A stretch of 30,093 nt of DNA, taken from IMG/VR virus record IMGVR_UViG_2802429218_000005, positions 1 to 30,093 of that record; one strand, written 5' to 3'. A program made the translations under genes and the position numbers. The stretch comes from a virus. Taxonomy: Duplodnaviria > Heunggongvirae > Uroviricota > Caudoviricetes. This document shows, piece by piece, positions 2,930-25,280 of this stretch (position 1 is the stretch's first letter; each line of letters begins with the position of its first letter). The notes beneath the pieces are model-generated. The model worked only from the letters and a program-made list of their open reading frames with translations. It was not told the DNA's origin and searched no databases.

Positions 2930-3796
2930 CTAAGCGAGGTTCTTGTTTTCAAATTGTTCCGGACTGAGGCCGCCACACCAACTGTGCCGCCGCCACCGAT
3001 TGTAATCACATTCGATATAATTAAACACCGTTGCCCGCATTATTTCCCGGCTGATAAAGTGTTCTCCATGGATACATTCCACTTTCAGCGAATGAAAGAA
3101 GCTTTCCACGCAGGCATTATCGTAGCAGCAACCTTTTGCGCTCATACTTCCACGCAGATTATGCCGCTTCAGTTGCGCCTGATAATCTGCTGAACAGTAC
3201 TGGCCTCTACGGTCCGTGTGAACGATAACGTTCCGGGGCCTCTTACGCCGCCACAGCGCCATCTGCAGGGCATCGCAGGCCAGTTGCGCCGTCATGCGTG
3301 GCGACATTGACCAGCCAATAACGGCACGTGACCACAGGTCAATGACCACTGCCAGATACAGCCAGCCTTCATCTGTACGTAAGTACGTGATGTCTCCTGC
3401 CCACTTCTGGTTCGGGCCACTGGCGTAAAAATCCTGCTCCAACAGATTTTCTGACACAGGCAGGCCGTGTGCGCGGTAGCTGACCGGGCTGAACTTCCGG
3501 GAGGCCTTTGCCCTCAGTCCCTGACGGCGCAGGCTTGCCGCCACGGTTTTTACGTTAAAGGGGTAACCCTGAGCACGCAGTTCATCCGTCAGGCGTGGGG
3601 CACCGTAACGCTGTTTTGACCGGGTAAAAGCCGCGAGGACAACGCTGTCGCAGTGTTGGCGGAACTGCTGACGCGTGCTTATCCTTGTCCGCCGCTGACA
3701 CCACGTATACCAGCCGCTGCGGGCCACCCGGAGCACGCGGCACATTGCTTTGATGCTGAACTCAGCCTGATGTTTTTCAATAAAGACATACTTCAT
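2930..3796 (-). CDS. insF: IS3 transposase OrfB (DDE catalytic component; normally expressed as OrfAB by -1 frameshift)
   Basis: Translation [32 protein letters not shown]... with integrase-core motifs ([18 protein letters not shown]); frame is -1 relative to orfA. Confidence 0.9.
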
Positions 3797-4495: not shown

Positions 4496-5899
4496 TCAAG
4501 ATTTTTTACTGCCAGTAAAACTATCACCCTCAAACTCATCCTGTTCGTGGTTACTCTGACGATCGGCTGTGTGTTTACGTATTTGATTCGCTATTTCCCC
4601 ACCAACAGTCTGTTGTGTTCGGATAGAATTAGCACTTCCCTTCATCATCTGATACTCCGATGCTCCATTAGACAGCCCGCTCGCCATGTGAGAAGCCATG
4701 CGGCCAGCTCGTGAGAATGATGAAGCAAACCCCTGGCTTCCTCCGCTGACGCTACCTGTATTGCTCCCTGCAGAAGAACCACCGGAACCGCCTGATGGTT
4801 GTCCTCCAGAAGTATCTACGGAACCGGTATCTTCCCCGCCGCCAAATCCTCCACCTAAACCACCTTTATCACCAGAACCAGATTCTTCGGCCATCGCCGC
4901 TTGTGCAGATTCAAATGCTGCTTTTAGAGCGGAAGCACCACCACTGACTTGAGCTGTAGCGCTCATTGCCATTGCCCCAGCGCCACTGATTGCAGTAGTA
5001 GCAGCGCCAGTAATCATACCTGCTCCAAAACCACCGATCCCTTGTAAGGACGCTCCTCCAACAACGCCTGATAACAACAACGGTAATTTATTCGTCAATA
5101 CTAAAAGAATAATTGACGCCAGAAGTAAAACAATAAGACTATTAAGATCAGGAATATCATTTTTAATAATAGAAAAATACTGATCTAAAAATGATTGCCC
5201 AATCCCAATGATTAATGTCATTGTAAATAATTGAATACCAATCGATAATACTGTGCGTAAGTAATTTATTGCTATATCAGAAGTCCATTTCGAGCCACCA
5301 AACCCAAGAAAAATAACTCCTGCATAACACAACACCCATGCAGAAACTAACATTATTAGCATATTTATCGCGATAAGCGCCATTACTACTAATACTATTA
5401 TCGCGACGGTTATCATTATGGTCGAAATCATTGGAGACCAAATTGATGCCGCTGAACTGACCTTTGTTAATATCACAAAAGCTATATCAACTATGCTGGA
5501 GGGTGAAATACCAGTACTTGTTCCTAAAGCATTTGCTGCAAGTTGTCTCATTGAGTTAATTATAGATTGTGCTATGGCTGGGCCGTTGATTAAAAGATAA
5601 TAAAAAAAACCTATCACGGCAAAAAAACGAACTATTTCTGCAAGTGCATTGATTAAACCTTCCCCTTGCATCGCCAACATACCAAATGTCCAAACCATAC
5701 TGATTAATACCAGCCCCCAGAAGAGCCAATTCGCATAATCACCAATTACTAATGACCATGTGCTGGCTACTTGCTGAAACTTATCTAATAACGTATCAAG
5801 TAAACCGCTACTATCTAATTGACCAGCATAAGCATTTACAGAAAACAAAAAAATCATTCCCCAAAAAGTGAGTTTGCTTACTATTCTCATAATTACCAT
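4496..5899 (-). CDS. trbL: Conjugal transfer protein TrbL/VirB6-like (polytopic membrane protein with Gly/Ser-rich C-terminal tail)
   Basis: Multiple hydrophobic TM segments followed by a GGxGG/SGGS-rich low-complexity tail, typical of TrbL; sits in trbJ-K-L order. Confidence 0.75.
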   Translation of the reverse strand: MVIMRIVSKLTFWGMIFLFSVNAYAGQLDSSGLLDTLLDKFQQVASTWSLVIGDYANWLFWGLVLISMVWTFGMLAMQGEGLINALAEIVRFFAVIGFFYYLLINGPAIAQSIINSMRQLAANALGTSTGISPSSIVDIAFVILTKVSSAASIWSPMISTIMITVAIIVLVVMALIAINMLIMLVSAWVLCYAGVIFLGFGGSKWTSDIAINYLRTVLSIGIQLFTMTLIIGIGQSFLDQYFSIIKNDIPDLNSLIVLLLASIILLVLTNKLPLLLSGVVGGASLQGIGGFGAGMITGAATTAISGAGAMAMSATAQVSGGASALKAAFESAQAAMAEESGSGDKGGLGGGFGGGEDTGSVDTSGGQPSGGSGGSSAGSNTGSVSGGSQGFASSFSRAGRMASHMASGLSNGASEYQMMKGSANSIRTQQTVGGEIANQIRKHTADRQSNHEQDEFEGDSFTGSKKS

Positions 5900-7590: not shown

Positions 7591-7872
7591 TTATTCTTTC
7601 GGTTTTATCTTCGGTGGCCTACCTCGTTTCTTTTGAACCATTTCAGCACGCTGCATTAAATCGCGGTTTTCCAGCTCTGATTCAACAGAATTATCTATCC
7701 ACTCTTTAACATCTTCTCGACGCCACAAAAGTCGCTTATTGCCAGGAAGACGGCATCTGGGAGGGAGGCATTTAGGGTTCCGAGTTGCATCACTACGGAT
7801 ACTTTTCACTGTTTTCTTCAAAGCAAAAGCTAACTCTTCGACGGTTATAAGTTCAGGCATAACTGGTTTCAT
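7591..7872 (-). CDS. AlpA/excisionase-family HTH DNA-binding protein
   Basis: LITVEELAFALKKTVKSIR ... RLPGNKRLLWRREDVKEWI resembles HTH_17/AlpA/Xis-type regulators of integrative elements; basic C-terminal tail. Confidence 0.55.
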   Translation of the reverse strand: MKPVMPELITVEELAFALKKTVKSIRSDATRNPKCLPPRCRLPGNKRLLWRREDVKEWIDNSVESELENRDLMQRAEMVQKKRGRPPKIKPKE

Positions 7873-8180
7873 AGCAGAACCTATCTCTCAGAAAATATTT
7901 TCAGGATTTTAGCCGCTATAATTTTAGCCGCTAAATTTTGCAAACCAACGTTAAGAATTGAGAATACCCAAAAATTATCACCTGAAATATTTCTGTCAAC
8001 ACCTCAACAGCTAGAGGAAATAAAAAACCACTGGACCAGCTCTATTTTTTGTTCGTTTTTTGCACAACAATAAGGTTTTAATAAGTCTTTTAGTATTTTG
8101 GTTATATATATGGTTAAAGATCTGGTTAGAGAACAATAAAACAATAGCTAATCCGTTGTTTTGTAATTAATTTAAAAAAA

Positions 8181-8246
8181 TGCCCTACCTCATATGTCAA
8201 TAATTTGCCCCTCATATGTCATGAAATGGCCCCTCATATGTCATAA
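8181..8246. repeat. Three tandem iteron-like direct repeats, 22-bp period, core cctcatatgtca (8188, 8210, 8232)
   Basis: Direct reading: tgccctacctcatatgtcaata / atttgcccctcatatgtcatga / aatggcccctcatatgtcataa. Confidence 0.7.
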
Positions 8247-8331
8247 ACATAAAAAAACAAGCACAGGTTATAAACATAGTTACTAATAGAATTTGTGGAT
8301 AAATGCACAGGATATACGCAAAAAATATAAA

Positions 8332-8347
8332 TTGTTTAGCTAAACAA
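8332..8347. promoter_or_regulatory. Perfect 16-bp palindrome TTGTTTAGCTAAACAA (copy 1), candidate operator
   Basis: Exact self-complementary sequence; identical second copy at 8505..8520. Confidence 0.6.
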
Positions 8348-8403
8348 AATAGCAACAATAAAAATGAAACAAAATGTAAATAATGGATTTTGGCTATAGT
8401 TAC

Positions 8404-8429
8404 CCACAAAGGTTAGCTAACCTTTGTGG
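8404..8429. promoter_or_regulatory. Perfect 26-bp palindrome CCACAAAGGTTAGCTAACCTTTGTGG sharing core TTAGCTAA with the 16-bp palindromes
   Basis: Exact self-complementary sequence; followed by a 16-bp palindrome tctcataattatgaga at 8432..8447. Confidence 0.6.
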
Positions 8430-8504
8430 TATCTCATAATTATGAGAGCACCATCATTAACAACGGATATATCGAAACGAGTAACAGAAAATGCTCCTCG
8501 ATGG

Positions 8505-8520
8505 CTTGTTTAGCTAAACA
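8505..8520. promoter_or_regulatory. Perfect 16-bp palindrome TTGTTTAGCTAAACAA (copy 2), candidate operator
   Basis: Identical to copy at 8332..8347. Confidence 0.6.
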
Positions 8521-8813
8521 AATTTAAATTTTACTAAGTATGTATGAAGGGCAAAACCTGATCCCAAACAGGAAGGAATGGTCAATGGATAGGTGTTTTT
8601 GCTGCATAGCAACGCTACTCGCAATATAACCAGAAAAATAGGGATACTAAACCCGACAGGTGAGGCCGGGCTTGAGTATTTGTAGCTCTGGGCGGAGGGG
8701 ACATCCCACATTAGACGAAAAAATTCTATAATGAATTGTTGAGGTAAAGCAATTAGGTATTATCTAAAACAAGTTATCGCTGATGTAAAAGTTGTTATCT
8801 AACAAGTAGAAAG

Positions 8814-9080
8814 GTGAGAATTGTGAGGACAAAAAAGGCTGAACCAAGCACTGTAGGTGAAATACTTAATGAAGAATTCTTGAAACCCATGAATATGTCT
8901 TTATGTAAATTAGCGGAATTGACAGGAATGTCTTATAGTAGAATAAGAAAAATTATAATACATAATGATCCAATATCCATAAAAGAAGCATTATTACTTG
9001 CTGAAGTATTTCACACGGATCCGGATTTTTGGATAAACTTACAAAATGTTCATCATTACTGGCATCAAAAATGTAACTGA
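8814..9080 (+). CDS. XRE-family HTH protein, HigA-like antitoxin/antidote (solitary); alternative GTG start at 8823
   Basis: STVGEILNEEFLKPMNMSLCKLAELTGMSYSRIRKII...EALLLAEVFHTDPDFWINLQNVHHYW matches HigA/VapI-type antidote pattern; SD aaggtgag upstream of GTG 8823. Confidence 0.7.
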   Translation: MRIVRTKKAEPSTVGEILNEEFLKPMNMSLCKLAELTGMSYSRIRKIIIHNDPISIKEALLLAEVFHTDPDFWINLQNVHHYWHQKCN

Positions 9081-9134
9081 TATCAAAATCTGCCGTTAAT
9101 AATGTGTATTATCAACGGCATGTATTTAACAAGA

Positions 9135-10880
9135 TTAATTATACTCAATGCGGAATAATTTATTCTCTTGAGACAATTTCACAATGAAGTTTTTCTCATC
9201 GCTCAGTTCTTTTGGAAGTTTATCCTTCAATATAGATGCAACATACTGAATTTGAGATTTGTAACGTTCAACAAGATTAGCTATTCTGACCAGTTGATTG
9301 CCATGCATAAGTTCTTTTTTGTCATTTAACAAAAAATGGAAACAAGGAATGTTTTCTTCATCTGCAAATAAAATATATGCAATATCAAAACAAACAATTT
9401 CTCCTTGTTTTTTTCCTGAACTAAAATTGGTATTAAACGAACTGAATTTGTATATTTTTTTTCCTGTTTTTGATGCTGTAACAATATCATATTTCAAAGC
9501 ATATTGTTCACCGTATAACTCTTGAGACACAGTTGAAAAATATTTATTGAACTTATTTACTTGAGATTGAACTTCTAACTCAAAATCATCAGAAAATAAA
9601 TTATTGTTAATAGCATCAACTTGAGCGTTTAACTCTTCGATATTCTTTTCAGTTTTCTCAATTTGGTTAATAATGGCTTCGAACTCACCTTTTTTTCGGT
9701 GTTTTTCATTCAATTCTAAGACTAGTCCTTCAAGTTCATCAAACGAACCGCTTTTATTTATATTTTCAACTAATTCTTTTTCTTTGGCAAGAAGTATAGT
9801 TAAATCTTCTTGAGTTTTACTAATCTCACTAGTTATTACAGGTAATTCTTTTGATATGAATTTAACTTTTTCTTCAACCATTTGGTTGTGGAAGGAAAGT
9901 AATGATTCAAATTTTACCTGAATATTCTTTATATTATTACTGGCTTCAGTATATAGATCTTTCAATTGATTAGTGTCAATTTCCATCTTGCCACTTTCAA
10001 TATCTTTTACCGCCTCAACTATGAGTTCTTTCCGTAATTTAAGCTTACTTAATTTTGAACCTATAGTGCTCAATTGATACTTAATATCATCCAAAGCATT
10101 GAGATCATTTTCAAAGTTAGGGTTGATATAGAAAGTAGACTTTTTCAGATCTAAATCATTAATTTCCGAAATCAATAATGCTAGTGATGTCTCATATGCA
10201 GTGCGAGTTTGTTTAGACTCCAACCTATTCTTGAAGGTTGTTTCCATTCGGATGCTAGCTAACAAATTTTGTTTAAGAGCTCCTTTTCCAAAATCACATC
10301 CAAGAAGAAATAAATGAAGGGTCTCATATTCATCATCACGAGTAAATGAGCTTAGTGTTCTCAGCGTATGGGTGACACTGAGTTCTTTATATCTTATATT
10401 ATTAGATATTATTTGGGAAAAGGTAGGCTTATTACCATAATGGCCAGAAACTAATACGTCTGTTAACGTTTCTTCAAACTCTTCGATTGTTTTTTGTAGT
10501 CCATTAATTCTTCTGATACATTTTTTACGAGAGAGAAAATTTCGCTCAATGACGATGGTCTTAGCTAGCGGATCATCTAAATCCTCAACAAGTGTTAGGG
10601 TTATTAAAACCTCTGTTTCAATCAAGAAGTTTTTAACAAGTGTATATTCGCCCTTTTTAGTTTCTGGGTCAGTATAAATGCCTTTAGCATCTGCGCCTAA
10701 ACAAAAATCGACTAACATTAATACTGTTGTTTTACCAACATTATTGCCAGTGGTTTTGGTTGACTCGGTTGATGCTTCATCAACTGGCGTTTCATCAACG
10801 ATCAAATTCAAACCAGCATGAAACTTTATTAAGCGTATAACCCCATCTTTATTGGCTATCTGGAGAGATTTTATGAACAT
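9135..10880 (-). CDS. SMC/Rad50-like ABC ATPase with central coiled coil (LmuB-like / ABC-3C ATPase candidate)
   Basis: N-terminal FHAGLNLIVDE then Walker A GNNVGKTT (res 45-52); long E/K/L-rich central region; C-terminal Walker B-like ILFADEE; AT-rich; last gene of coupled 3-gene operon. Confidence 0.7.
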   Translation of the reverse strand: MFIKSLQIANKDGVIRLIKFHAGLNLIVDETPVDEASTESTKTTGNNVGKTTVLMLVDFCLGADAKGIYTDPETKKGEYTLVKNFLIETEVLITLTLVEDLDDPLAKTIVIERNFLSRKKCIRRINGLQKTIEEFEETLTDVLVSGHYGNKPTFSQIISNNIRYKELSVTHTLRTLSSFTRDDEYETLHLFLLGCDFGKGALKQNLLASIRMETTFKNRLESKQTRTAYETSLALLISEINDLDLKKSTFYINPNFENDLNALDDIKYQLSTIGSKLSKLKLRKELIVEAVKDIESGKMEIDTNQLKDLYTEASNNIKNIQVKFESLLSFHNQMVEEKVKFISKELPVITSEISKTQEDLTILLAKEKELVENINKSGSFDELEGLVLELNEKHRKKGEFEAIINQIEKTEKNIEELNAQVDAINNNLFSDDFELEVQSQVNKFNKYFSTVSQELYGEQYALKYDIVTASKTGKKIYKFSSFNTNFSSGKKQGEIVCFDIAYILFADEENIPCFHFLLNDKKELMHGNQLVRIANLVERYKSQIQYVASILKDKLPKELSDEKNFIVKLSQENKLFRIEYN

Positions 10881-11100
10881 ATTCCAATTTCCCCTTTGGA
10901 TTTAATTCAACTATTCCTGCTAGGTATAACCAGTCAAGAGATAAAACAAAAATTGATATAGACATTTCAATTTTTTTCTTTGTTTCGTAAAAAAGATCTA
11001 TCAATTCAATTTCATCGAAACGTTTCAGCGTATCTATAATAAACCCACCGTTATAATATAAGCTATCTTTAGGATGAATGTCCTTTGGTAACAACATCAT
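10849..11100 (-). CDS. Small overlapping ORF (83 aa), candidate middle component of three-gene system
   Basis: Overlaps upstream gene end and downstream gene start by 32 nt each (translational coupling); no motif recognised. Confidence 0.4.
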   Translation of the reverse strand: MMLLPKDIHPKDSLYYNGGFIIDTLKRFDEIELIDLFYETKKKIEMSISIFVLSLDWLYLAGIVELNPKGKLEYVHKISPDSQ

Positions 11101-12049
11101 TCACTCCGTTAGGGTCCCTAAAAATTTTACAGCGTATGAACGCGTCCACTGCAAGTATACTAACACAAAGCTCCAGTTCCTCTAATGGTATTTGTGTAAA
11201 ATTTGCACTTTTTCTGACCATTTCAACAGAGCTGTCAATTATTTTAAAAAATAGCTCATCTCCAGTGTATTGTGTACTCAATTTTACGAAGATAGTTCTA
11301 AAGGAAGACAAAACTGAAAGGCTTGAGTTTTTACCCATCTGGTTGAACTCTGAATAAATGCGGGATACTTTTCCATGATGGATTTTGTAATCTTCAATAA
11401 TATATTCAGCTGCATTCAAATTATTAAATGTAATCTTGTCAGTTACATCGAATGGTTGCGGGAAGTCAGTAGTTTCAACATTAGAAAAATCCTCCTTAGC
11501 TAATATATTTATAACAGCAGCAATATTTGTTTCGATTAAAACATTATCAGATTCCTCTTGTAACTCATTTTTTAGAAAACCGTGTATTTCTTTCTGTTTT
11601 GTTATGTCAAGATGTGAAATAACATTAAGTATCGATTTTACATCATGAATATCTTGCTGCGGTATAAAAACCAAAGCATGAGGATTAGTGTAAGTTTTAT
11701 TTCTTAAATCACTAGCATCTTTTGCAATTGATATAAATTTAAACTGATGGCCTTTATATAATCTTAAGTCTTTGTTCAAGGCTGAATCAATTTTTGTTTT
11801 AGTTGCAGTTGATGAAACCTGTAATACTATCTTCCCATTCTCATCGATAAGATCGATACCCTCAAAATTATGCTTCTCTTGATTAGTATTCTTTAGGGAA
11901 TACCCAAATAATAAATTAAAGAAGTGAACATAAAAATCTTCACAATGAAGATTATAGTTAAGAATATTTAACTTCCCTCTTAATTCAACGCTATAGCATA
12001 GCAACGTAAGCCTTTTCTCACATAAATCAAAATAAATAGATCTGTTCAC
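11069..12049 (-). CDS. Hypothetical 326-aa protein, candidate effector (LmuA-position) of three-gene defence-like operon
   Basis: First gene of the operon; AT-rich; no confidently recognisable catalytic motif by eye. Confidence 0.6.
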   Translation of the reverse strand: MNRSIYFDLCEKRLTLLCYSVELRGKLNILNYNLHCEDFYVHFFNLLFGYSLKNTNQEKHNFEGIDLIDENGKIVLQVSSTATKTKIDSALNKDLRLYKGHQFKFISIAKDASDLRNKTYTNPHALVFIPQQDIHDVKSILNVISHLDITKQKEIHGFLKNELQEESDNVLIETNIAAVINILAKEDFSNVETTDFPQPFDVTDKITFNNLNAAEYIIEDYKIHHGKVSRIYSEFNQMGKNSSLSVLSSFRTIFVKLSTQYTGDELFFKIIDSSVEMVRKSANFTQIPLEELELCVSILAVDAFIRCKIFRDPNGVNDVVTKGHSS

Positions 12050-12302
12050 ACATATTATCCTTAAACTATAAACTAATCCGATATTATGAACTTAGGTAAA
12101 GTAGAAAAACTCTTCACAGATCTTACAGCATCTACGAGCTGGTTCAAGGTATGTTGAGATGGATTGAGATGTGTAGCGTATCTTCTCATTCCAAAAAGAA
12201 ACCTGCCACAATTTTGCCACACTCACAACGCGCAAAAATGCACATTTGTGTTAAGAAAAGCAAAACAACGCAACAGTAACCAGATGATTTTATTAGAAAA
12301 AA

Positions 12303-12348
12303 TGGTGCCGATAATAGGAGTCGAACCTACGACCTTCGCATTACGAAT
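12303..12348 (-). tRNA. tRNA-Thr(CGU) 3' fragment, 46 nt from anticodon loop to CCA (thrW-like att-core remnant, not a complete gene)
   Basis: Reverse complement reads ATTCGTAATGCGAAGGTCGTAGGTTCGACTCCTATTATCGGCACCA; sequence 5' of the anticodon loop does not continue as tRNA. Confidence 0.7.
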
Positions 12349-12571
12349 CATAAGAATCCGCTTCTAATTCAAAGTATTACCCCATCAACACTGCGCTCAC
12401 ACGTCCCACCACATCAAAACATGTAAAGCCTTGCAAGCCATTGTGAGGCCTTATGTGTCTCAGTTTTGTCCCACTACGACCTGCACAGAAAATAAGAAAA
12501 TAGCGGTGATATCAAACAGTACAGAAGTCTTTTTTCTTTCAAATGGAGAAACTGATTAACCCGTTTAATTG

Positions 12572-12796
12572 TACTCCTCATGGGCAATCAGCAGTCCTCA
12601 GAGTAATGGAATGGCAGAAAGGTTCGTGAAAACGATGAAGGAAGACTACATCGCGTTCATGCCGAAACCGAATGTAAGAACGGCATTGCATAATCTTGCA
12701 GTGGCGATCGAACATTACAATGAAAACCATCCGCACAGTGCGTTGGGTTATCGCTCTCCGCGAGAATATCGACGTCAGCGGGTAACGTTAACTTAA
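12572..12796 (+). pseudogene. DDE transposase/integrase-core C-terminal fragment (IS3/IS481-like), 5'-truncated
   Basis: [18 protein letters not shown] ... [14 protein letters not shown] are C-terminal rve-domain motifs; in-frame stop immediately upstream, no N-terminal part present. Confidence 0.55.
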
Positions 12797-12837
12797 GATA
12801 CACCCCCTGTCTGGAAATAAGGGGGCAAGAACAATGA

Positions 12838-13590
12838 TCAGATTCCCTGGTGAGTAAGAATTTTACTTTCTGAACTCCTCTGAGAGTATTGACTTGGAGA
12901 AACACCAAAATAACGTCTAAATACATAAGTAAAGTATGAGACACTGACATAACCACAGACCTTAGCTACTTTACTAATAGGATAACAACGAGTGCTGAGT
13001 AAATATTCAGCCATTTGCATCCTCTCATCAAGTATGATCTTACTGAATGATACCCCCTCTTCTTTCAATTTCCTCTTTAGTAAACTTTCGCTGAGATATA
13101 ATCTTGATGATATATCCTTAAGACGCCATGGTGCAGATAAATCCGTATGAATAATCGTTTTAACTTTAGCCCCTGTGCTTTTCAAACATCCAAACAGAAA
13201 TACTCCAAATTGTTTTTCAGAAGAAAATGCAGAGAGACATGTAAAAGCAATAGACTCATCAAAAGTTTCTATGTATTCAGCACAGTGATTAGCCCAACTA
13301 ATTAATCCTTTAATTAAACTGAAGTCAGCAAAGTTTATTTTTAAATAAGATGGATATTCCCTACAATCAGAAATATCCCTTAAGTTATTAGCTTTCAAAT
13401 AGCGACTAATAAACTCAGCGCCAAAATCCGCCACTATCACTCTTTCAGGATATGTCAGGAAAAAATCTCTATAGCTAGAGTCGACAAGTACAGATAAACC
13501 TCTATCCAGAAACACACTCTCTTTTCCGAAATAAACATCAAAGGACTCCAAAATCAATATAACTGAACATGTAGTTGCCATATCATCCAC
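12838..13590 (-). CDS. AraC-family transcriptional regulator (AppY/EnvY-like subfamily)
   Basis: C-terminal HTH region WRLKDISSRLYLSESLLKRKLKEEGVSFSKIILDERMQMAEYLL...CGYVSVSYFTYVFRRYFGVSPSQY resembles AppY/EnvY as recalled; AT-rich. Confidence 0.8.
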   Translation of the reverse strand: MDDMATTCSVILILESFDVYFGKESVFLDRGLSVLVDSSYRDFFLTYPERVIVADFGAEFISRYLKANNLRDISDCREYPSYLKINFADFSLIKGLISWANHCAEYIETFDESIAFTCLSAFSSEKQFGVFLFGCLKSTGAKVKTIIHTDLSAPWRLKDISSRLYLSESLLKRKLKEEGVSFSKIILDERMQMAEYLLSTRCYPISKVAKVCGYVSVSYFTYVFRRYFGVSPSQYSQRSSESKILTHQGI

Positions 13591-14164
13591 CCAATTTAAC
13601 TGAAACCAGGATGAAGTATATGCATATAAAGTTCACTTTGCCAAACTTCAGTATAAAAAACCACATAAAAAATAGGGTGTGATAAAAAATACCGTAAAAA
13701 TAAAGCAAAGGATTATAAATTCCGTTACAGTTACAAATGATACTTAAGAAACAATTCCTTAGAAAACCTTATTTACAGCCAATAAGTAAGACACTTATAT
13801 GATATCAAGTTTTCATAAAACATAACTAGGCTAAATAGCTGCGCCTAATACCGCTACACTTTTGCCATCCCATGTTTGCCTCCGGGTATTGACCCCTTCT
13901 CTACGCAACTTCAGTTCCCACCACCAACTTTGCGGCAGCTTTGTAGGATCAATGTCTAAAAGAATAATGGTGACCGATAAGAAAACGACTGAATAACTGC
14001 AGATTTTCGCTCGAAACCTTCCTGTCAGATCCATAGCGAATCAAGTGCTGAATGTCACAGTATCGAACAGAAAACAGTGACGATCTAACCCTTCAAGAAT
14101 ATTCTACGATTGTTCTGTTTAGGAAAAGCAAGGCGGGAAGTCGGGAGATAAGTCATTGATAAAG

Positions 14165-14309: not shown

Positions 14310-15179
<870 letters not shown>

Positions 15180-20359: not shown

Positions 20360-21438
20360 CAGAACGGGTCCTCCTGTACTCTGGCTTTTTTCTTTTTCCG
20401 CGCGCCGGGGGCTTCGGGTTCAGGCAGATAAGCATCAGGTGGGCCGACACGGATTTCCGTCAGGGTGCCATTCTGGTCCTGAGTAAACGTGACTTCCGAG
20501 ACAAGCAGTTCGGTATTGTCGAAACCACAGACCGGATCGAAGACAATCACCCGCTGGTTGGGCTGCCACAGCGTACCGTTACCCTGTCGCCAGCCCTGCA
20601 CCACATAGGTGGTTTCATCCGTCCGCGCCGCCCGTTGTCGGGCTTCAAAGTCAGCACGCGCAATACAGCCTGCCCCCGTAGCCTGCCCTGTCTGCCTGAT
20701 ATACATCGGACGGTAACGGGCAATAAATGCATCCTCTGTGCGGGCCCGCAGCGCGGTGGTGGTGGCCTCACCGAAATCATCGTCGTTTCCGGCACGCTGC
20801 CCCGCCACCTGGTAAACTGAAAACCGCTCCCGGATACTCTTCTCCGTATCACAGGAAAGGATGTTTTCCCCAAGTACCAGCGCGGTATGTGCCCGCGTTG
20901 AGCCAATACCACCAATCACCAGCCTGCCGTGCGGGTCGTCATAAGCCAGCGCCTGCTGCTGACCGAGTATTTTGTTGATCACCTCGATCACCGTTTCACC
21001 GTGATCAGGCTGGACATCCGGAATAACACCCGACGGCGCACCGTTGTTCACCACCTCAATGCCGAAGGGCGCAGCAAGCGCCTGCGCAATCTGTACCAGC
21101 GATCGTCCGTTAAACTGTGTCGGTTCGGCTGCACAGTCAATCAGATCAGCGGTTAGACTGCGTCCGGCAATACCGGTGCTGACCGAACGGGCATCGTAAC
21201 GAACGGGCGTCGCCTCCACCCAGCCGGTGATCACCAGCTCATCACCAATCAGCACTTCCACTTTTGAACCGTTTTTAATGCGCGGCTGAAGCGTGGTGAT
21301 ACCCTCATCTCCCGGCCACTGGCGGGTGATCTCCACACTGAAATCCCGCGCCAGTCGTTCAACACCGGCACCGATGCGCACCGATGTCCAGCCATTCCAC
21401 TCCCGGCCATTTACCCGTAGCGTGACGTTATCGTTCAT
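20359..21438 (-). CDS. Tail/baseplate hub protein, Mu gpP / late control D-like
   Basis: Size and position downstream of DNA-circulation gene in Mu-like order. Confidence 0.75.
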   Translation of the reverse strand: MNDNVTLRVNGREWNGWTSVRIGAGVERLARDFSVEITRQWPGDEGITTLQPRIKNGSKVEVLIGDELVITGWVEATPVRYDARSVSTGIAGRSLTADLIDCAAEPTQFNGRSLVQIAQALAAPFGIEVVNNGAPSGVIPDVQPDHGETVIEVINKILGQQQALAYDDPHGRLVIGGIGSTRAHTALVLGENILSCDTEKSIRERFSVYQVAGQRAGNDDDFGEATTTALRARTEDAFIARYRPMYIRQTGQATGAGCIARADFEARQRAARTDETTYVVQGWRQGNGTLWQPNQRVIVFDPVCGFDNTELLVSEVTFTQDQNGTLTEIRVGPPDAYLPEPEAPGARKKKKARVQEDPF

Positions 21439-22763
21439 TGCACTGGCACCTTCAGAGGGATCACCGGCACAAAGCCGGGATGCGTAATGGCATTACGCCG
21501 GATAATGTCCGCGTCACGCGCCGCGTTATCAAACCAGGTCGCCGCCAGCACCAGCGCGGGTAAAACCTCATCCGGCGTGCGCTGAATGATCCGTGCAGAC
21601 TGTTCAAGGCGCGTGTTGATATCCGCATTCAGATCTGCTTTCACCCGGCGCAGCGCCAGAAACAGCGCATCACTGGTTGTACGGGACAACTCCTTATCAA
21701 TTGCCGTATTCAGTGTGTCGCGAATGTCAGTCAGTTCTTCCCACGTCGGCAGGTCAACTGTGTTTTTCACCGCCGGTGCATTGTTCAGTGCCGGATGCGT
21801 GACGGAAGGCCAGCCAGTGCTCTGCGCGGGTGTTGTTGCCTGCCCCACTGCGGAATTCTGCATCACCGCGGAAGTTGTTGGCGCAGGCAATCGGGTGACG
21901 GCATACGCCGCTTCGCTGATTGCGGTCGTACGAAGGGTGCTGGCAACCACGTTACGCTGCTGCGTCGCCGTGGCGGTGGTTTTACTGTCCGTTTTCCAGA
22001 CGCCGCGCGGTTGCAGATCGCTGCCGAGGCTGACACCGGAAAGCCTTTTGATCATGGTGACCAGGTCGCTGGCGTTACCATAAAGGCGTTTCCCGGTACG
22101 CCACATTTTCTGCACCTGCTCAACGAAATTTTTGCCTGACGATGGCGGCGGCAGAAGTACCGAGATATCCCCCTGCAACAGCCTGGCGGCATCCGATACG
22201 GCAGAATCCACCACTTTCATCGCATCAGAAACATACCCCAGCATTATGCTGGCATTACCGATAACGTCGTTCTGCACGAAATCCGCCACACCATCGATAC
22301 TGAAACCGCTGAAGCTGTCACTGATGCAGTCATCCAGTGCAGAACAGGATGACATCAGCGTCTGCGCCGTCGCCGCACCTGATGTGGGGTAAGAGAGTTC
22401 TCCTGCTTCGACAAACTTCAGGTCAAAGCGGACAATACGCCCTTCACTTTTCGATGTGCTGACCCGAACTTCCCCGTCAACACAGACTTTCAGCTCACCA
22501 TATGTCGGGTGGACAAGCGTGCCGGGACCGGGTTTATTCAGCGCGTCAATCAGGCGATCGCGCTGGTCAAAGCAGTCATCTCCCACCACATAAGCTGTGA
22601 TGGACGGGCGGAAAGTGACTTTTCCCAGATCTTCGGTATAGGGCTTGTCGCGGTTCGGATATTCGTGTGTTTCCACACGGCGACCGGTTCCCGCACTTTC
22701 TTCTTCAACCTTAAACGGTACGCCGCGAAATGACGCATCCTGAAGCCTGTCTTTCCACGTCAT
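21435..22763 (-). CDS. DNA circulation protein (Mu gpN-like)
   Basis: N-terminus MTWKDRLQDASFRGVPFKVEEES...HEYPNRDKPYTEDLG typical of Mu N family; SD GGAG upstream. Confidence 0.8.
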   Translation of the reverse strand: MTWKDRLQDASFRGVPFKVEEESAGTGRRVETHEYPNRDKPYTEDLGKVTFRPSITAYVVGDDCFDQRDRLIDALNKPGPGTLVHPTYGELKVCVDGEVRVSTSKSEGRIVRFDLKFVEAGELSYPTSGAATAQTLMSSCSALDDCISDSFSGFSIDGVADFVQNDVIGNASIMLGYVSDAMKVVDSAVSDAARLLQGDISVLLPPPSSGKNFVEQVQKMWRTGKRLYGNASDLVTMIKRLSGVSLGSDLQPRGVWKTDSKTTATATQQRNVVASTLRTTAISEAAYAVTRLPAPTTSAVMQNSAVGQATTPAQSTGWPSVTHPALNNAPAVKNTVDLPTWEELTDIRDTLNTAIDKELSRTTSDALFLALRRVKADLNADINTRLEQSARIIQRTPDEVLPALVLAATWFDNAARDADIIRRNAITHPGFVPVIPLKVPVQ

Positions 22764-22777
22764 ATAAACTCCGGATA

Positions 22778-22834
22778 CAAAAAACCCGCCAAATCTGCTT
22801 TGTCAGTTATTTACATCGCAGAAGATGTGGCGGG
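22778..22834 (-). terminator. Imperfect hairpin followed by T6 on minus strand downstream of moron ORF (possible leaky terminator)
   Basis: Minus-strand cccgcca ... tggcggg stem followed by tttttt; loop is long, so weak. Confidence 0.3.
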
Positions 22835-22853
22835 AACCTAATATTTTTAATTA

Positions 22854-23366
22854 CTATCTGAGTTGAACATCAATGGAATAAATATCACCACTCTTTATAA
22901 ATTTAGAATCTGTCCTTTCATCAAAAGATTCAAATGACTGTACCTTTAAAAACTTTTTCATTTTATTTTCAAAAATACTTTCATTAACACCAGTTAAATA
23001 CTTGAACGCTCTACCAGCAAGGACCTCATTACTTAAATCCATTGTGTTTTTATTGTCTTTGAAAAACCAAACAATAACCTTTTGTGGGCATGATGGATTA
23101 TAAACAGATATATAAAACTGCGGCTCATATTTTTCATCAGCGTCATCACTAAGCATTTCTTCAGAAGATAATTCTCTTCTGAATTCATATTGCCGCTTAG
23201 TTATTCCTTCATCCTTTATTATCTCTTGCTTAACTGGTGCAATACCTATAGAAGAGATTAATTCTGACTCATTAAAGCTGAACTTACACTCTTCCGCAGC
23301 CAAGTTAAAAGATAAAAGTGCAGATATAAAAAAAACAAAGATACGCATAATCATCCCTTCAATCAT
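22854..23366 (-). CDS. Low-GC secreted protein of unknown function (moron inserted in tail operon)
   Basis: N-terminal signal-peptide-like MRIFVFFISALLSFNLAAEE; markedly AT-rich versus flanking tail genes; flanked by non-coding gaps. Confidence 0.6.
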   Translation of the reverse strand: MIEGMIMRIFVFFISALLSFNLAAEECKFSFNESELISSIGIAPVKQEIIKDEGITKRQYEFRRELSSEEMLSDDADEKYEPQFYISVYNPSCPQKVIVWFFKDNKNTMDLSNEVLAGRAFKYLTGVNESIFENKMKKFLKVQSFESFDERTDSKFIKSGDIYSIDVQLR

Positions 23367-23447
23367 TTGTAAGGAATGATTATATTAACTACTTAAAGCT
23401 GAAAACCCAAATTATGCCAGACAAAAACACATTAATCATTTTGTACA

Positions 23448-25280
23448 CTACCTGAACCGCGTATAGCCAACATCATGGCTGACATCAAAACCGCTGGATC
23501 GCGTTTCCATAACCCGCATACCCGGAGGCGAATTCACAAAAGATACCTTGATCTCACCATCAACTTTTGGCACAGAAGCTTTGTTAATCATGAAGGGATT
23601 CGAGCCTGTGGCATCGGAGGCGTTGTTTGACTGAGCCGGATCCACCGCCGGATAAGGTGTGTATCCCCGCGCCGGTATTCCCGTCCCATAAGCATCATAA
23701 GCACCCGCGCCCCACTGCGCAGAGTTAATGGCATCGACCGTGTCACCGGAACTGTCGGTAAACCACTCAATAATTGGCTTCAGCTTGTCCCACATATCCT
23801 GAAACCACTTAACAACCGGTCCCCAGTTATTGATCACCATCCCCAGCGGCGACCAGGCAAAAACCTTCTTCAGAAGTTCCCAACCTGCCTCAAAATAAGG
23901 ACCAATGGTTTCCCAGAGCTTCTTGAAATAAGGTCCGACAACATCCCAGTTAGTGATAATTAATCCCGCAGCCAGAGCAATCGCCGTCGCAATCATGCCA
24001 ATCGGCGTCATCGACATAATCCTGCTGACAATACTGATGGCACTGCCCACGCCCATCAATCCCAGTTTCAGAATCGCAAGACCGGCAGCAAGCCCGACGA
24101 CGCCGCGAATAACCCGGGGATTTTCATCCGCAAACTTCGTGAATTTCTCCCCCAACTCCCCCAGCCATTGTGTGATATTTTTAGCGTCACCAGAAAATGC
24201 GCCGCCAATAGCCGCAAGGCCGTTAGTTGCGGTCCCTGTCATTGCCTCCCACAGGTTGGACAGCGTACCAAGCTGTGCCTGAACACGTTTATTCAGGCTG
24301 GCCTGTTTATTCATCTTCTGCTGGATCTGATCGTAGCCATCCTTTCCTTTATCGATCAGAGCATTGACCACCTGAAGGGTTTCAGCATCATCACCAAATA
24401 TTGCCTTAAGTACACCTGTTCGCTTAACGTCGGTCAGTTTTCGCAGCTTTGCCAGTTGCCTGAACATGTTATCAAGACCGCCAAAACTTCCTTTGCCGTC
24501 AGTAAAATCGAGCTGTACCCCGAGTTTCTGGCGGGCCATAACTTTATTAACGTCCCTGATTTTCTTAACGCTTAATCCGGACTGGATAACTTTTCGCAGG
24601 GCATTACCTGCCGACTCCCCGTTCATCCCCATCTGATCCATCATGACGCTGATGGGGGCAAGGCTCTGTGCAGCCTGAAGACCGTCCTTGTTCACCATCT
24701 TCAGAACAGAACTGGTTTTAGTGAAGAAGGACAACATGTTGGTATCGTCAACGCCCAGATAAAACGCCTTCTGGATAGTGTCGAACAGCCCCATCATGTC
24801 TTCTGACGTCGTTCCGGTAGCATCCTGCATCTTTGCAGCAAACTCAGCAGCCGCTTCCGGTGTTTTTTTCAGTTGTACCGCAAGATAAGCTGTCGCTTTA
24901 CCCACACCACCCAGAATGTTTTCTGCCGGGATCCCCTGACGCACCAGCATCTGCATCATGTTCTGGAAATCAGCCGTTGTACCGGGTAGCTGGTTACCCA
25001 GGCCAATAGCCAGTTTATTGATGTCCTGAAAGCTCTTTCCAACCTCGCCGTTCGCATCCATCATGGCGACTTTCAGCCCGGTGGCGGCGTTTTCCTGATC
25101 GGCATAAGATTTCAGGGAAAGCGTCAGACCCGCTGCCAGTCCGCCACCAAGCGCCAGCCCACCCTGTGACGCTTCTTCCGCCTGGCGTTTAAATCCCCGG
25201 ATTTTCTTTTGCATTTTCGACAGCGCGGGAGAAAGCCTGTCGACACCGGTGATCAACGCCTTAAGCTCAAATTCAGCCAT
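23448..25280 (-). CDS. Tail tape measure protein
   Basis: 610 aa, Ala/Gly-rich helical and hydrophobic segments, located after chaperone pair. Confidence 0.85.
   Translation of the reverse strand: MAEFELKALITGVDRLSPALSKMQKKIRGFKRQAEEASQGGLALGGGLAAGLTLSLKSYADQENAATGLKVAMMDANGEVGKSFQDINKLAIGLGNQLPGTTADFQNMMQMLVRQGIPAENILGGVGKATAYLAVQLKKTPEAAAEFAAKMQDATGTTSEDMMGLFDTIQKAFYLGVDDTNMLSFFTKTSSVLKMVNKDGLQAAQSLAPISVMMDQMGMNGESAGNALRKVIQSGLSVKKIRDVNKVMARQKLGVQLDFTDGKGSFGGLDNMFRQLAKLRKLTDVKRTGVLKAIFGDDAETLQVVNALIDKGKDGYDQIQQKMNKQASLNKRVQAQLGTLSNLWEAMTGTATNGLAAIGGAFSGDAKNITQWLGELGEKFTKFADENPRVIRGVVGLAAGLAILKLGLMGVGSAISIVSRIMSMTPIGMIATAIALAAGLIITNWDVVGPYFKKLWETIGPYFEAGWELLKKVFAWSPLGMVINNWGPVVKWFQDMWDKLKPIIEWFTDSSGDTVDAINSAQWGAGAYDAYGTGIPARGYTPYPAVDPAQSNNASDATGSNPFMINKASVPKVDGEIKVSFVNSPPGMRVMETRSSGFDVSHDVGYTRFR

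Follow-up and report, generated by a model that had tools for sequence, protein, structure and literature searches.

A single-gene accessory cassette, probably a long-standing resident of a cargo slot in the tail module of SfV-type prophages

Some phages export proteins that block phage entry, examples being T4 Spackle (Sp), T5 Llp, phi80 Cor and TP-J34 Ltp. The gene for Llp is linked to that of the tail protein which Llp counters. Morons, in the definition of Hendrix and Juhala, consist of extra DNA between genes that are adjacent in related phages, with a deviant composition, their own promoter and terminator, and expression from the prophage (PMC3594210). The original moron, HK97 gp15, lies beside the tape-measure gene and confers superinfection exclusion by blocking genome entry (Juhala 2000, Cumby 2012; PMC3594210). 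Hot spots for accessory and defence genes are also known in prophages, P2/P4 being an example (Rousset 2022, as cited in PMC11364771).

The locus described here lies in a 30,093 nt stretch of Caudoviricetes DNA (positions 1 to 30,093 of the IMG/VR record IMGVR_UViG_2802429218_000005), the whole of which we refer to as the window. It shares with the moron definition both its position, as extra DNA between otherwise adjacent genes, and a composition unlike that of its surroundings. Like HK97 gp15, it is a single, small, GC-deviant gene of the tail operon beside the tape measure, absent in relatives and with a product bound for the envelope. The two differ in that gp15 lies upstream of the tape-measure gene whilst the window gene lies downstream, and in that gp15, of the YebO family, is small, sits in the inner membrane and has bacterial homologues elsewhere, whilst the window protein is a predicted soluble, exported alpha/beta protein with homologues in this slot only. 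Promoter activity and exclusion have been demonstrated for gp15; for the window gene both are putative. We consider it likely that the region is an accessory cassette of one gene, occupying a fixed cargo slot, and an old, patchily kept resident of the tail module, a claim which concerns its anatomy and evolution and not its function.

Setting and anatomy of the insert

The right half of the window (~17.4–30.1 kb) holds the tail module of an SfV-type prophage, encoded on the minus strand. Prophages of this type have a lambdoid head joined to a contractile tail like that of Mu, and the genes of the module follow the order sheath, tube, assembly chaperone, tape measure, DNA-circulation protein and baseplate genes. 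Several complete E. coli chromosomes are 100% identical to the window over 1 kb centred on the insert, and Escherichia phage SKA5 is 99% identical over 2.2 kb around it. The other tail genes abut or overlap, the insert gene being the exception with gaps. The slot is bounded at one end by the stop codon of the tape-measure gene and at the other by a terminator-like hairpin, which abuts the ribosome-binding site (RBS) of the DNA-circulation gene (GGAG, 22769–22772, immediately after the T-run of the hairpin). Feature coordinates are given in Table 1.

The insert itself (22764–23447) is 684 nt long with 31.6% GC and contains one minus-strand open-reading frame (ORF; 22854–23366, 170 aa from the first ATG). 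Measured against 214 segments of the tail module, each 495 nt long (mean GC 0.561, sd 0.030, minimum 0.479), the GC of the ORF (0.313; GC3 0.26) lies at z = −8.1. An earlier interpretation of this DNA, made from its letters and open-reading frames (the sequence-only reading), had described a strongly AT-rich ORF which interrupts a GC-rich, tightly packed tail operon, with non-coding gaps on both sides and a hairpin plus T-run downstream, and all of these features are borne out by our analysis. It had also given the ORF 170 aa and a signal-peptide-like N-terminus, of which the leader holds and the length probably does not. The NCBI PGAP annotation of the identical E. coli records begins at the ATG at 23348, as do the PHROG profile and every homologue, and a Shine-Dalgarno sequence (AAGGG, 23355–23359) lies 6 nt 5′ of it. 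The true start is probably this ATG, 18 nt downstream of the one chosen previously, giving a protein of 164 aa.

Compared with alleles sharing 94–98% identity, the ORF exhibits a dN/dS of 0.15–0.20, which implies purifying selection, if somewhat more relaxed than in the genes next to it (0.06–0.13), and rules out a non-coding AT-rich spacer. With this dN/dS, conserved columns that include a cysteine pair, and a confident structural model, the insert ORF is a real gene. The marks of transposition (target-site duplication, flanking direct repeats, terminal inverted repeats) were not found at the insert, nor were any Rfam elements within it.

The left half of the window contains no phage tail DNA and is a mosaic of mobile and accessory DNA (29–48% GC), with genes for an IS3-type transposase (rve), a TrbL/VirB6-like protein, an AraC-type regulator and a LEM-3-like GIY-YIG protein (2930–3796, 4496–5899, 12838–13590, 14355–15179). 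A block of GC 0.29–0.36 in this half (7800–13800) contains two adjacent minus-strand genes (9135–12049), encoding a DUF2326 protein (581 aa) and a SMEK_N + CTD10 protein (326 aa), parts of the predicted ABC-3C (ABC-three-component) conflict system, outside the tail module.

Table 1 Features of the slot in the window, and alternative cargos in related loci (coordinates are those of the sequence named in the second column).
Feature	Sequence	Position	Strand	Details
DNA-circulation (Mu gp43/N-like) gene, downstream slot border	window	21435..22763	−	PF07157, E 3e-34
Downstream non-coding gap	window	22764..22853	−	90 nt
Terminator-like hairpin	window	22779..22834	−	7-bp GC stem 22785–22791 / 22828–22834 plus inner stem; T6 22779–22784
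Gene for 164-aa protein, predicted exported (PHROG 8976)	window	22854..23348	−	start ATG 23348; first in-frame ATG 23366; GC 0.313
Mature acidic alpha/beta domain (predicted)	window	22857..23294	−	146 aa; conserved Cys pair C21 and C87 (precursor numbering)
Signal peptide (predicted, manual criteria)	window	23295..23348	−	residues 1–18, MRIFVFFISALLSFNLAA; predicted cleavage before EEC
Shine-Dalgarno (SD)-sequestering hairpin (predicted)	window	23346..23384	−	AAGGG paired with upstream anti-SD arm; MFE −16.5 kcal/mol, z = −4.0
Upstream non-coding gap, tape-measure stop to ORF start	window	23349..23447	−	99 nt, GC 0.28; 81 nt if first ATG used
Candidate extended −10 element, TGgCATAAT	window	23411..23419	−	found by eye; −35 match 3/6
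Tail tape-measure gene, upstream slot border	window	23448..25280	−	PF10145, E 4e-27; called tape measure in identical E. coli and SKA5 records
bPH_1 domain cargo	L014	828–1205		125 aa; cytoplasmic; 24 E. coli genomes
tRNA_anti-like OB-fold cargo	L015; L019	875–1321; 793–1179	antisense to operon	128–148 aa; N-terminal TM segment; 70 genomes
TM-anchored cargo	L016	826–1356		176 aa; no Pfam match; includes ETEC H10407; 174 genomes
Lipoprotein cargo	L017 and L018	818–1495		225 aa; LLGGC lipobox; 54 genomes

The predicted product

The N-terminus of the window protein reads MR, followed by IFVFFISALLSF and N-L-A-A/E (the slash marks the predicted cleavage site), with a hydrophobic core of 12 residues (mean Kyte-Doolittle 2.7). 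Signal peptides were called by manual criteria, namely a basic n-region, a core of 10–15 residues, small residues at −1/−3, and conservation, and by these the window protein and its homologues carry a predicted Sec-type signal peptide (signal peptidase I). The layout of the cleavage site is kept in close homologues (VNA/E, ATA/E, VIA/D, SIA/E), and the n-region, hydrophobic leader and small −1 residue are kept in 14 of 15 aligned homologues. No lipobox ([LVI][ASTVI][GAS]C) is present, as LAAEEC puts the Cys three residues past the predicted cleavage site, and a lipoprotein is thereby ruled out. The protein resembles T4 Spackle, T5 Llp and phi80 Cor in being a small phage protein with a signal peptide, those three acting in the periplasm or at the outer membrane and the window protein, by prediction, in the periplasm; however, it shares no sequence or fold similarity with them, and Llp and Cor, unlike the window protein, are lipoproteins.

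The mature part is hydrophilic and acidic with two cysteines, of which C87 is invariant and C21 nearly so in the homologue alignment, and AlphaFold2 (13 sequences) returned a confident alpha/beta model (pLDDT 88, pTM 0.80). These features point to a product that would be soluble and periplasmic, and not part of the virion. The sequence-only reading had recognised no family, which agrees with our searches: the window protein matches PHROG 8976 over its full length (E 3.2e-107, profile 1–164 of 164, ORF residues 7–170), a family without functional annotation, and nothing in Pfam, NCBIfam or PADLOC. The remote homology and structure search which that reading had proposed likewise led to no known family or solved fold, a sequence-profile search of the PDB giving chance-level hits only (E ≥ 0.04) with no solved relative, and the fold search a single BFVD match of unknown function.

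Occupants of the slot and history of the gene family

A comparison with related prophages lacking the insert had been proposed in the same reading, and such prophages exist. In SfV, SfII and SfI both flanks are 96.5–96.9% identical to those in the window and the junctions are empty, the tape-measure and DNA-circulation genes of SfII lying ~60 nt apart. The two tail genes are also adjacent in SfIV, but there with a different tape-measure gene. Amongst 5,426 complete E. coli genomes the flanks occur in ~1,094, an empty junction of the SfII type in 542, and the window gene in 84, with a 68%-identical allele in one further genome. The window gene is dispensable, as near-identical prophages and isolated phages are found without it.

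Elsewhere the slot is filled by at least four other unrelated, AT-rich, single-gene cargos, which we found by sampling genomes with matching flanks and a different spacing, their position in the slot being confirmed in the sampled loci only. The GC of these four is 0.34–0.42 vs. 0.53–0.54 in the flanks. Envelope-targeted products are encoded by three of the four (four of five counting the window protein), and comparison of all five cargos with the PADLOC models gave no match. The possibility that the 176-aa and 225-aa cargos are remote homologues of the window family was rejected (hhalign probability below 2%). The slot is a cargo hot spot, either empty or holding unrelated AT-rich genes. As in the P2/P4 hot spots, a fixed intergenic slot holds alternative, unrelated, AT-rich cargos in near-identical prophages; unlike there, the five cargos are without a PADLOC match, are single small genes and are mostly envelope-targeted. 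A search of the literature returned no description of the window gene or of the slot.

Homologues of the window protein are few. A word-indexed search of 5.8 billion proteins gave 16 matches, a full HMM search of 1.84 billion representatives gave 12, all in the same family, and a scan of one genome per species gave two loci only. Family members are all named “hypothetical protein” and come from Escherichia, Shigella, Salmonella, Citrobacter, Kosakonia, Atlantibacter, Kluyvera, Pantoea (phage AH07) and many Yersinia species. In each of the 24 homologue-bearing loci retrieved, the tape-measure gene lies upstream and the DNA-circulation gene downstream, and no homologue was found outside the slot across the range of 27–100% identity in 1.8–5.8 billion proteins.

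The identity of each ORF to the window protein tracks that of its flanks, with a Spearman rho of 0.92 for either flank (n = 12, p 2e-5), the 12 loci being phylogenetically non-independent. At ORF identities of 100%, 94–98%, 57–62%, 42%, 36–37% and 27%, the tape measure shares 99%, 98–99%, 69–79%, 71%, 59% and 57% identity and the DNA-circulation protein 99.5%, 98–100%, 67–76%, 51%, 55–57% and 43%, respectively, and the window-family genes diverge faster than the flanking tail genes. AT-richness is found in every homologous locus (gene GC 0.31–0.40 vs. 0.47–0.57), and the low GC is a stable property of the gene, not a fading foreign signature. The simplest reading is long residence in the tail module with frequent loss or replacement; the co-divergence would look no different if the gene and its flanks had been transferred jointly by homologous recombination, and the two readings are equivalent. 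Down to 27% identity, the AT-rich gene has accompanied its tail module.

Expression and candidate roles

The junction hairpin in the window (CCCGCCA-N36-TGGCGGG, 22785–22834) has an MFE of −22.3 kcal/mol (z = −2.6), a stability reached by 1 of 200 shuffled sequences. In SfII, which has no cargo and is the single empty site read for this element, CCCACTCCGGTGGGATTTTTT lies directly 5′ of the DNA-circulation RBS and is annotated as a terminator in the record (L001 ~2274–2312). The sequence of the hairpin varies between cargos: CCCGCTTCGGCGGGTTTTTTT is present in divergent alleles of the window gene and with the lipoprotein cargo, and the bPH and 176-aa cargos have other variants. A hairpin and T-run 5′ of the DNA-circulation RBS occur in all SfV-type modules read (the window, L001, L004, L005, L007, L010, L020, L021, L024, L014, L016 and L017), except for the two with the antisense OB cargo, where a hairpin lies between the convergent genes instead. 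As the hairpin is also present at the empty SfII site, it is not peculiar to the insert and gives no evidence of an autonomous unit. It may be the scar of a lost cargo, or an element of the backbone. An element resembling an intrinsic terminator is kept mid-way in this late tail operon. In the SfII record (KC736978, L001) the DNA-circulation CDS (936–2306) begins 42 nt upstream of the ATG used elsewhere, so that the annotated CDS overlaps the record’s own terminator (2274–2312); this start is probably mis-called.

Upstream of the window gene, a sigma-70 consensus scan of the 99 nt gap found no promoter. The candidate extended −10 element in Table 1 was not reported by the scan because just 3 of 6 positions match in its −35, and a lone TATAAT (23379–23384), also seen by eye, overlaps the 5′ arm of the SD-sequestering hairpin. 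Compared with three alleles whose ORFs have a dS of 0.07–0.15, the gap shows 2 differences in 99 nt and is more conserved than synonymous sites, which is a hint of function. The SD hairpin corresponds to inverted repeat I3, with 13-nt arms that are 92% complementary. A comparable hairpin is present in two of five divergent alleles with a long gap (L004 and L007, not L005, L010 or L031), one close allele carries an uncompensated mismatch in it, and because it is not conserved across all alleles we leave it out of our main claim. In distant homologues the gene starts only 10–17 nt after the tape-measure gene, with a Shine-Dalgarno sequence, as an ordinary operon gene.

Since the window gene shares the strand of the tail operon and precedes the junction hairpin, we infer that it would be co-transcribed with the tape-measure gene in lytic growth, and a weak promoter of its own, for which there is a candidate, may also drive transcription in the lysogen. 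More speculatively, translation could be switched by promoter, in that transcripts started from the TATAAT would not include the anti-SD arm and would undergo translation in the lysogen, whilst late read-through transcripts would be masked and silent.

After export, the window protein would act in the periplasm. By analogy with the entry-blocking proteins above, we tentatively suggest that it is a periplasmic factor which blocks the entry of incoming phage tails, a suggestion that draws on its predicted export, its non-structural nature, its faster evolution than its neighbours and its mostly envelope-targeted slot-mates. Such a function would explain its permanent linkage to the genes of tail proteins that enter the envelope. 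No sequence or fold likeness to described superinfection-exclusion or anti-phage defence families was found in Pfam, NCBIfam, PADLOC, BFVD or the PDB. A more far-reaching proposal, which we regard as unlikely, is that the protein founds a new family of periplasmic superinfection-exclusion proteins in contractile-tailed temperate phages of the Enterobacterales, staying beside the tape-measure and DNA-circulation genes and co-evolving with them because it recognises their products on the way through the periplasm, with the slot as a dedicated hot spot for exclusion cargos that act on the envelope. If the window protein or its slot-mates do block phage entry, the slot would be a ready source of a compact group of exclusion genes acting at the envelope and would provide, in the window protein, a periplasmic counterpart to the inner-membrane case of HK97 gp15; the slot is present in about one fifth of complete E. 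coli genomes and in other Enterobacterales, which would be relevant to phage-therapy host range.

The protein might instead have a periplasmic role in the lytic cycle, made with the late tail genes and not from the prophage, for example to stop injection by progeny or superinfecting phage into infected cells or debris, or to tune lysis timing, which we consider possible though somewhat doubtful. The shared strand and position upstream of the junction hairpin, the short gaps with a Shine-Dalgarno sequence in distant homologues, and the empty promoter scan are all in its favour, yet read-through transcripts would carry the SD-sequestering hairpin, against efficient late translation, and the upstream gap is conserved. 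The slot is also open to more than late genes, as one of the alternative cargos is antisense and must be transcribed from a promoter of its own.

A factor for host fitness or virulence with no part in phage defence, e.g. in periplasmic binding or stress protection (compare lambda Bor, Lom and prophage SodC), is on balance unlikely. Export, as judged by the manual signal-peptide criteria, would suit such a factor, as would its carriers, which are commensal and pathogenic isolates from many hosts, and one remote viral fold match is automatically named a periplasmic binding protein. However, that match is at 13% identity with a machine-given name, known virulence and stress families gave no match, and strict linkage to one slot and one tail type over the whole family history is unexpected for a general fitness factor.

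Turning from function to origin, the sequence-only reading had seen in the insert a horizontally acquired moron carrying lysogenic conversion, exclusion or virulence cargo. Taken as a recent arrival out of an AT-rich donor, in the form of a self-contained unit of promoter, gene and terminator which would serve the lysogen as conversion or virulence cargo, this we judge distinctly unlikely. The low GC (z = −8.1), the close relatives without the gene, the gaps on both sides with a hairpin and T-run downstream, the conserved upstream gap and the candidate −10 element are as it would predict. Against it, homologues are found in this slot alone, their identity tracks the flanks and their AT-richness persists to 27% identity, all of which points away from a recent import; horizontal spread among different phage contexts, which is expected of a moron, was not seen either, all 24 loci having the same neighbours. 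Its autonomy is likewise doubtful, since the consensus promoter scan was empty and the same kind of hairpin and T-run is present at the empty SfII site and after each same-strand cargo; target-site duplications and terminal repeats are also absent. What remains of the moron reading is the cargo part, i.e. an optional, AT-rich gene for a predicted exported protein in a hot spot. The insert is a real, ordinary phage accessory gene for which the label “moron” is right broadly and probably wrong on recency and autonomy, and the locus is a clear reminder that a gene of low GC with the anatomy of a moron is not necessarily a recent arrival.

A structural or assembly part of the tail, to which the conserved position in tail operons of many genera might have pointed, is hardly credible and is ruled out on our reading by the conserved signal peptide together with dispensability, as the slot is empty in plaque-forming SfV-type phages and in 542 E. 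coli genomes with near-identical flanks, and the gene is replaceable by unrelated genes. The sequence-only reading had offered conservation as a structural component in related tail operons, with matching composition, as the finding that would overturn it; the position is indeed conserved, but neither the matching composition nor the structural role was found.

Additional genes were also seen at two other positions of related tail modules. In the Atlantibacter locus (L007, 9980–11778), two extra genes (506 and 93 aa, no Pfam match) lie between the DNA-circulation and gp44-like baseplate genes and seem to mark a second variable slot, one gene beyond the first in the tail operon. In two Kosakonia loci (L005 and L006, 14691–16378), a umuD/umuC-like pair (Peptidase_S24 and IMS polymerase) lies right after the tail-fibre genes as further cargo at the end of the module.
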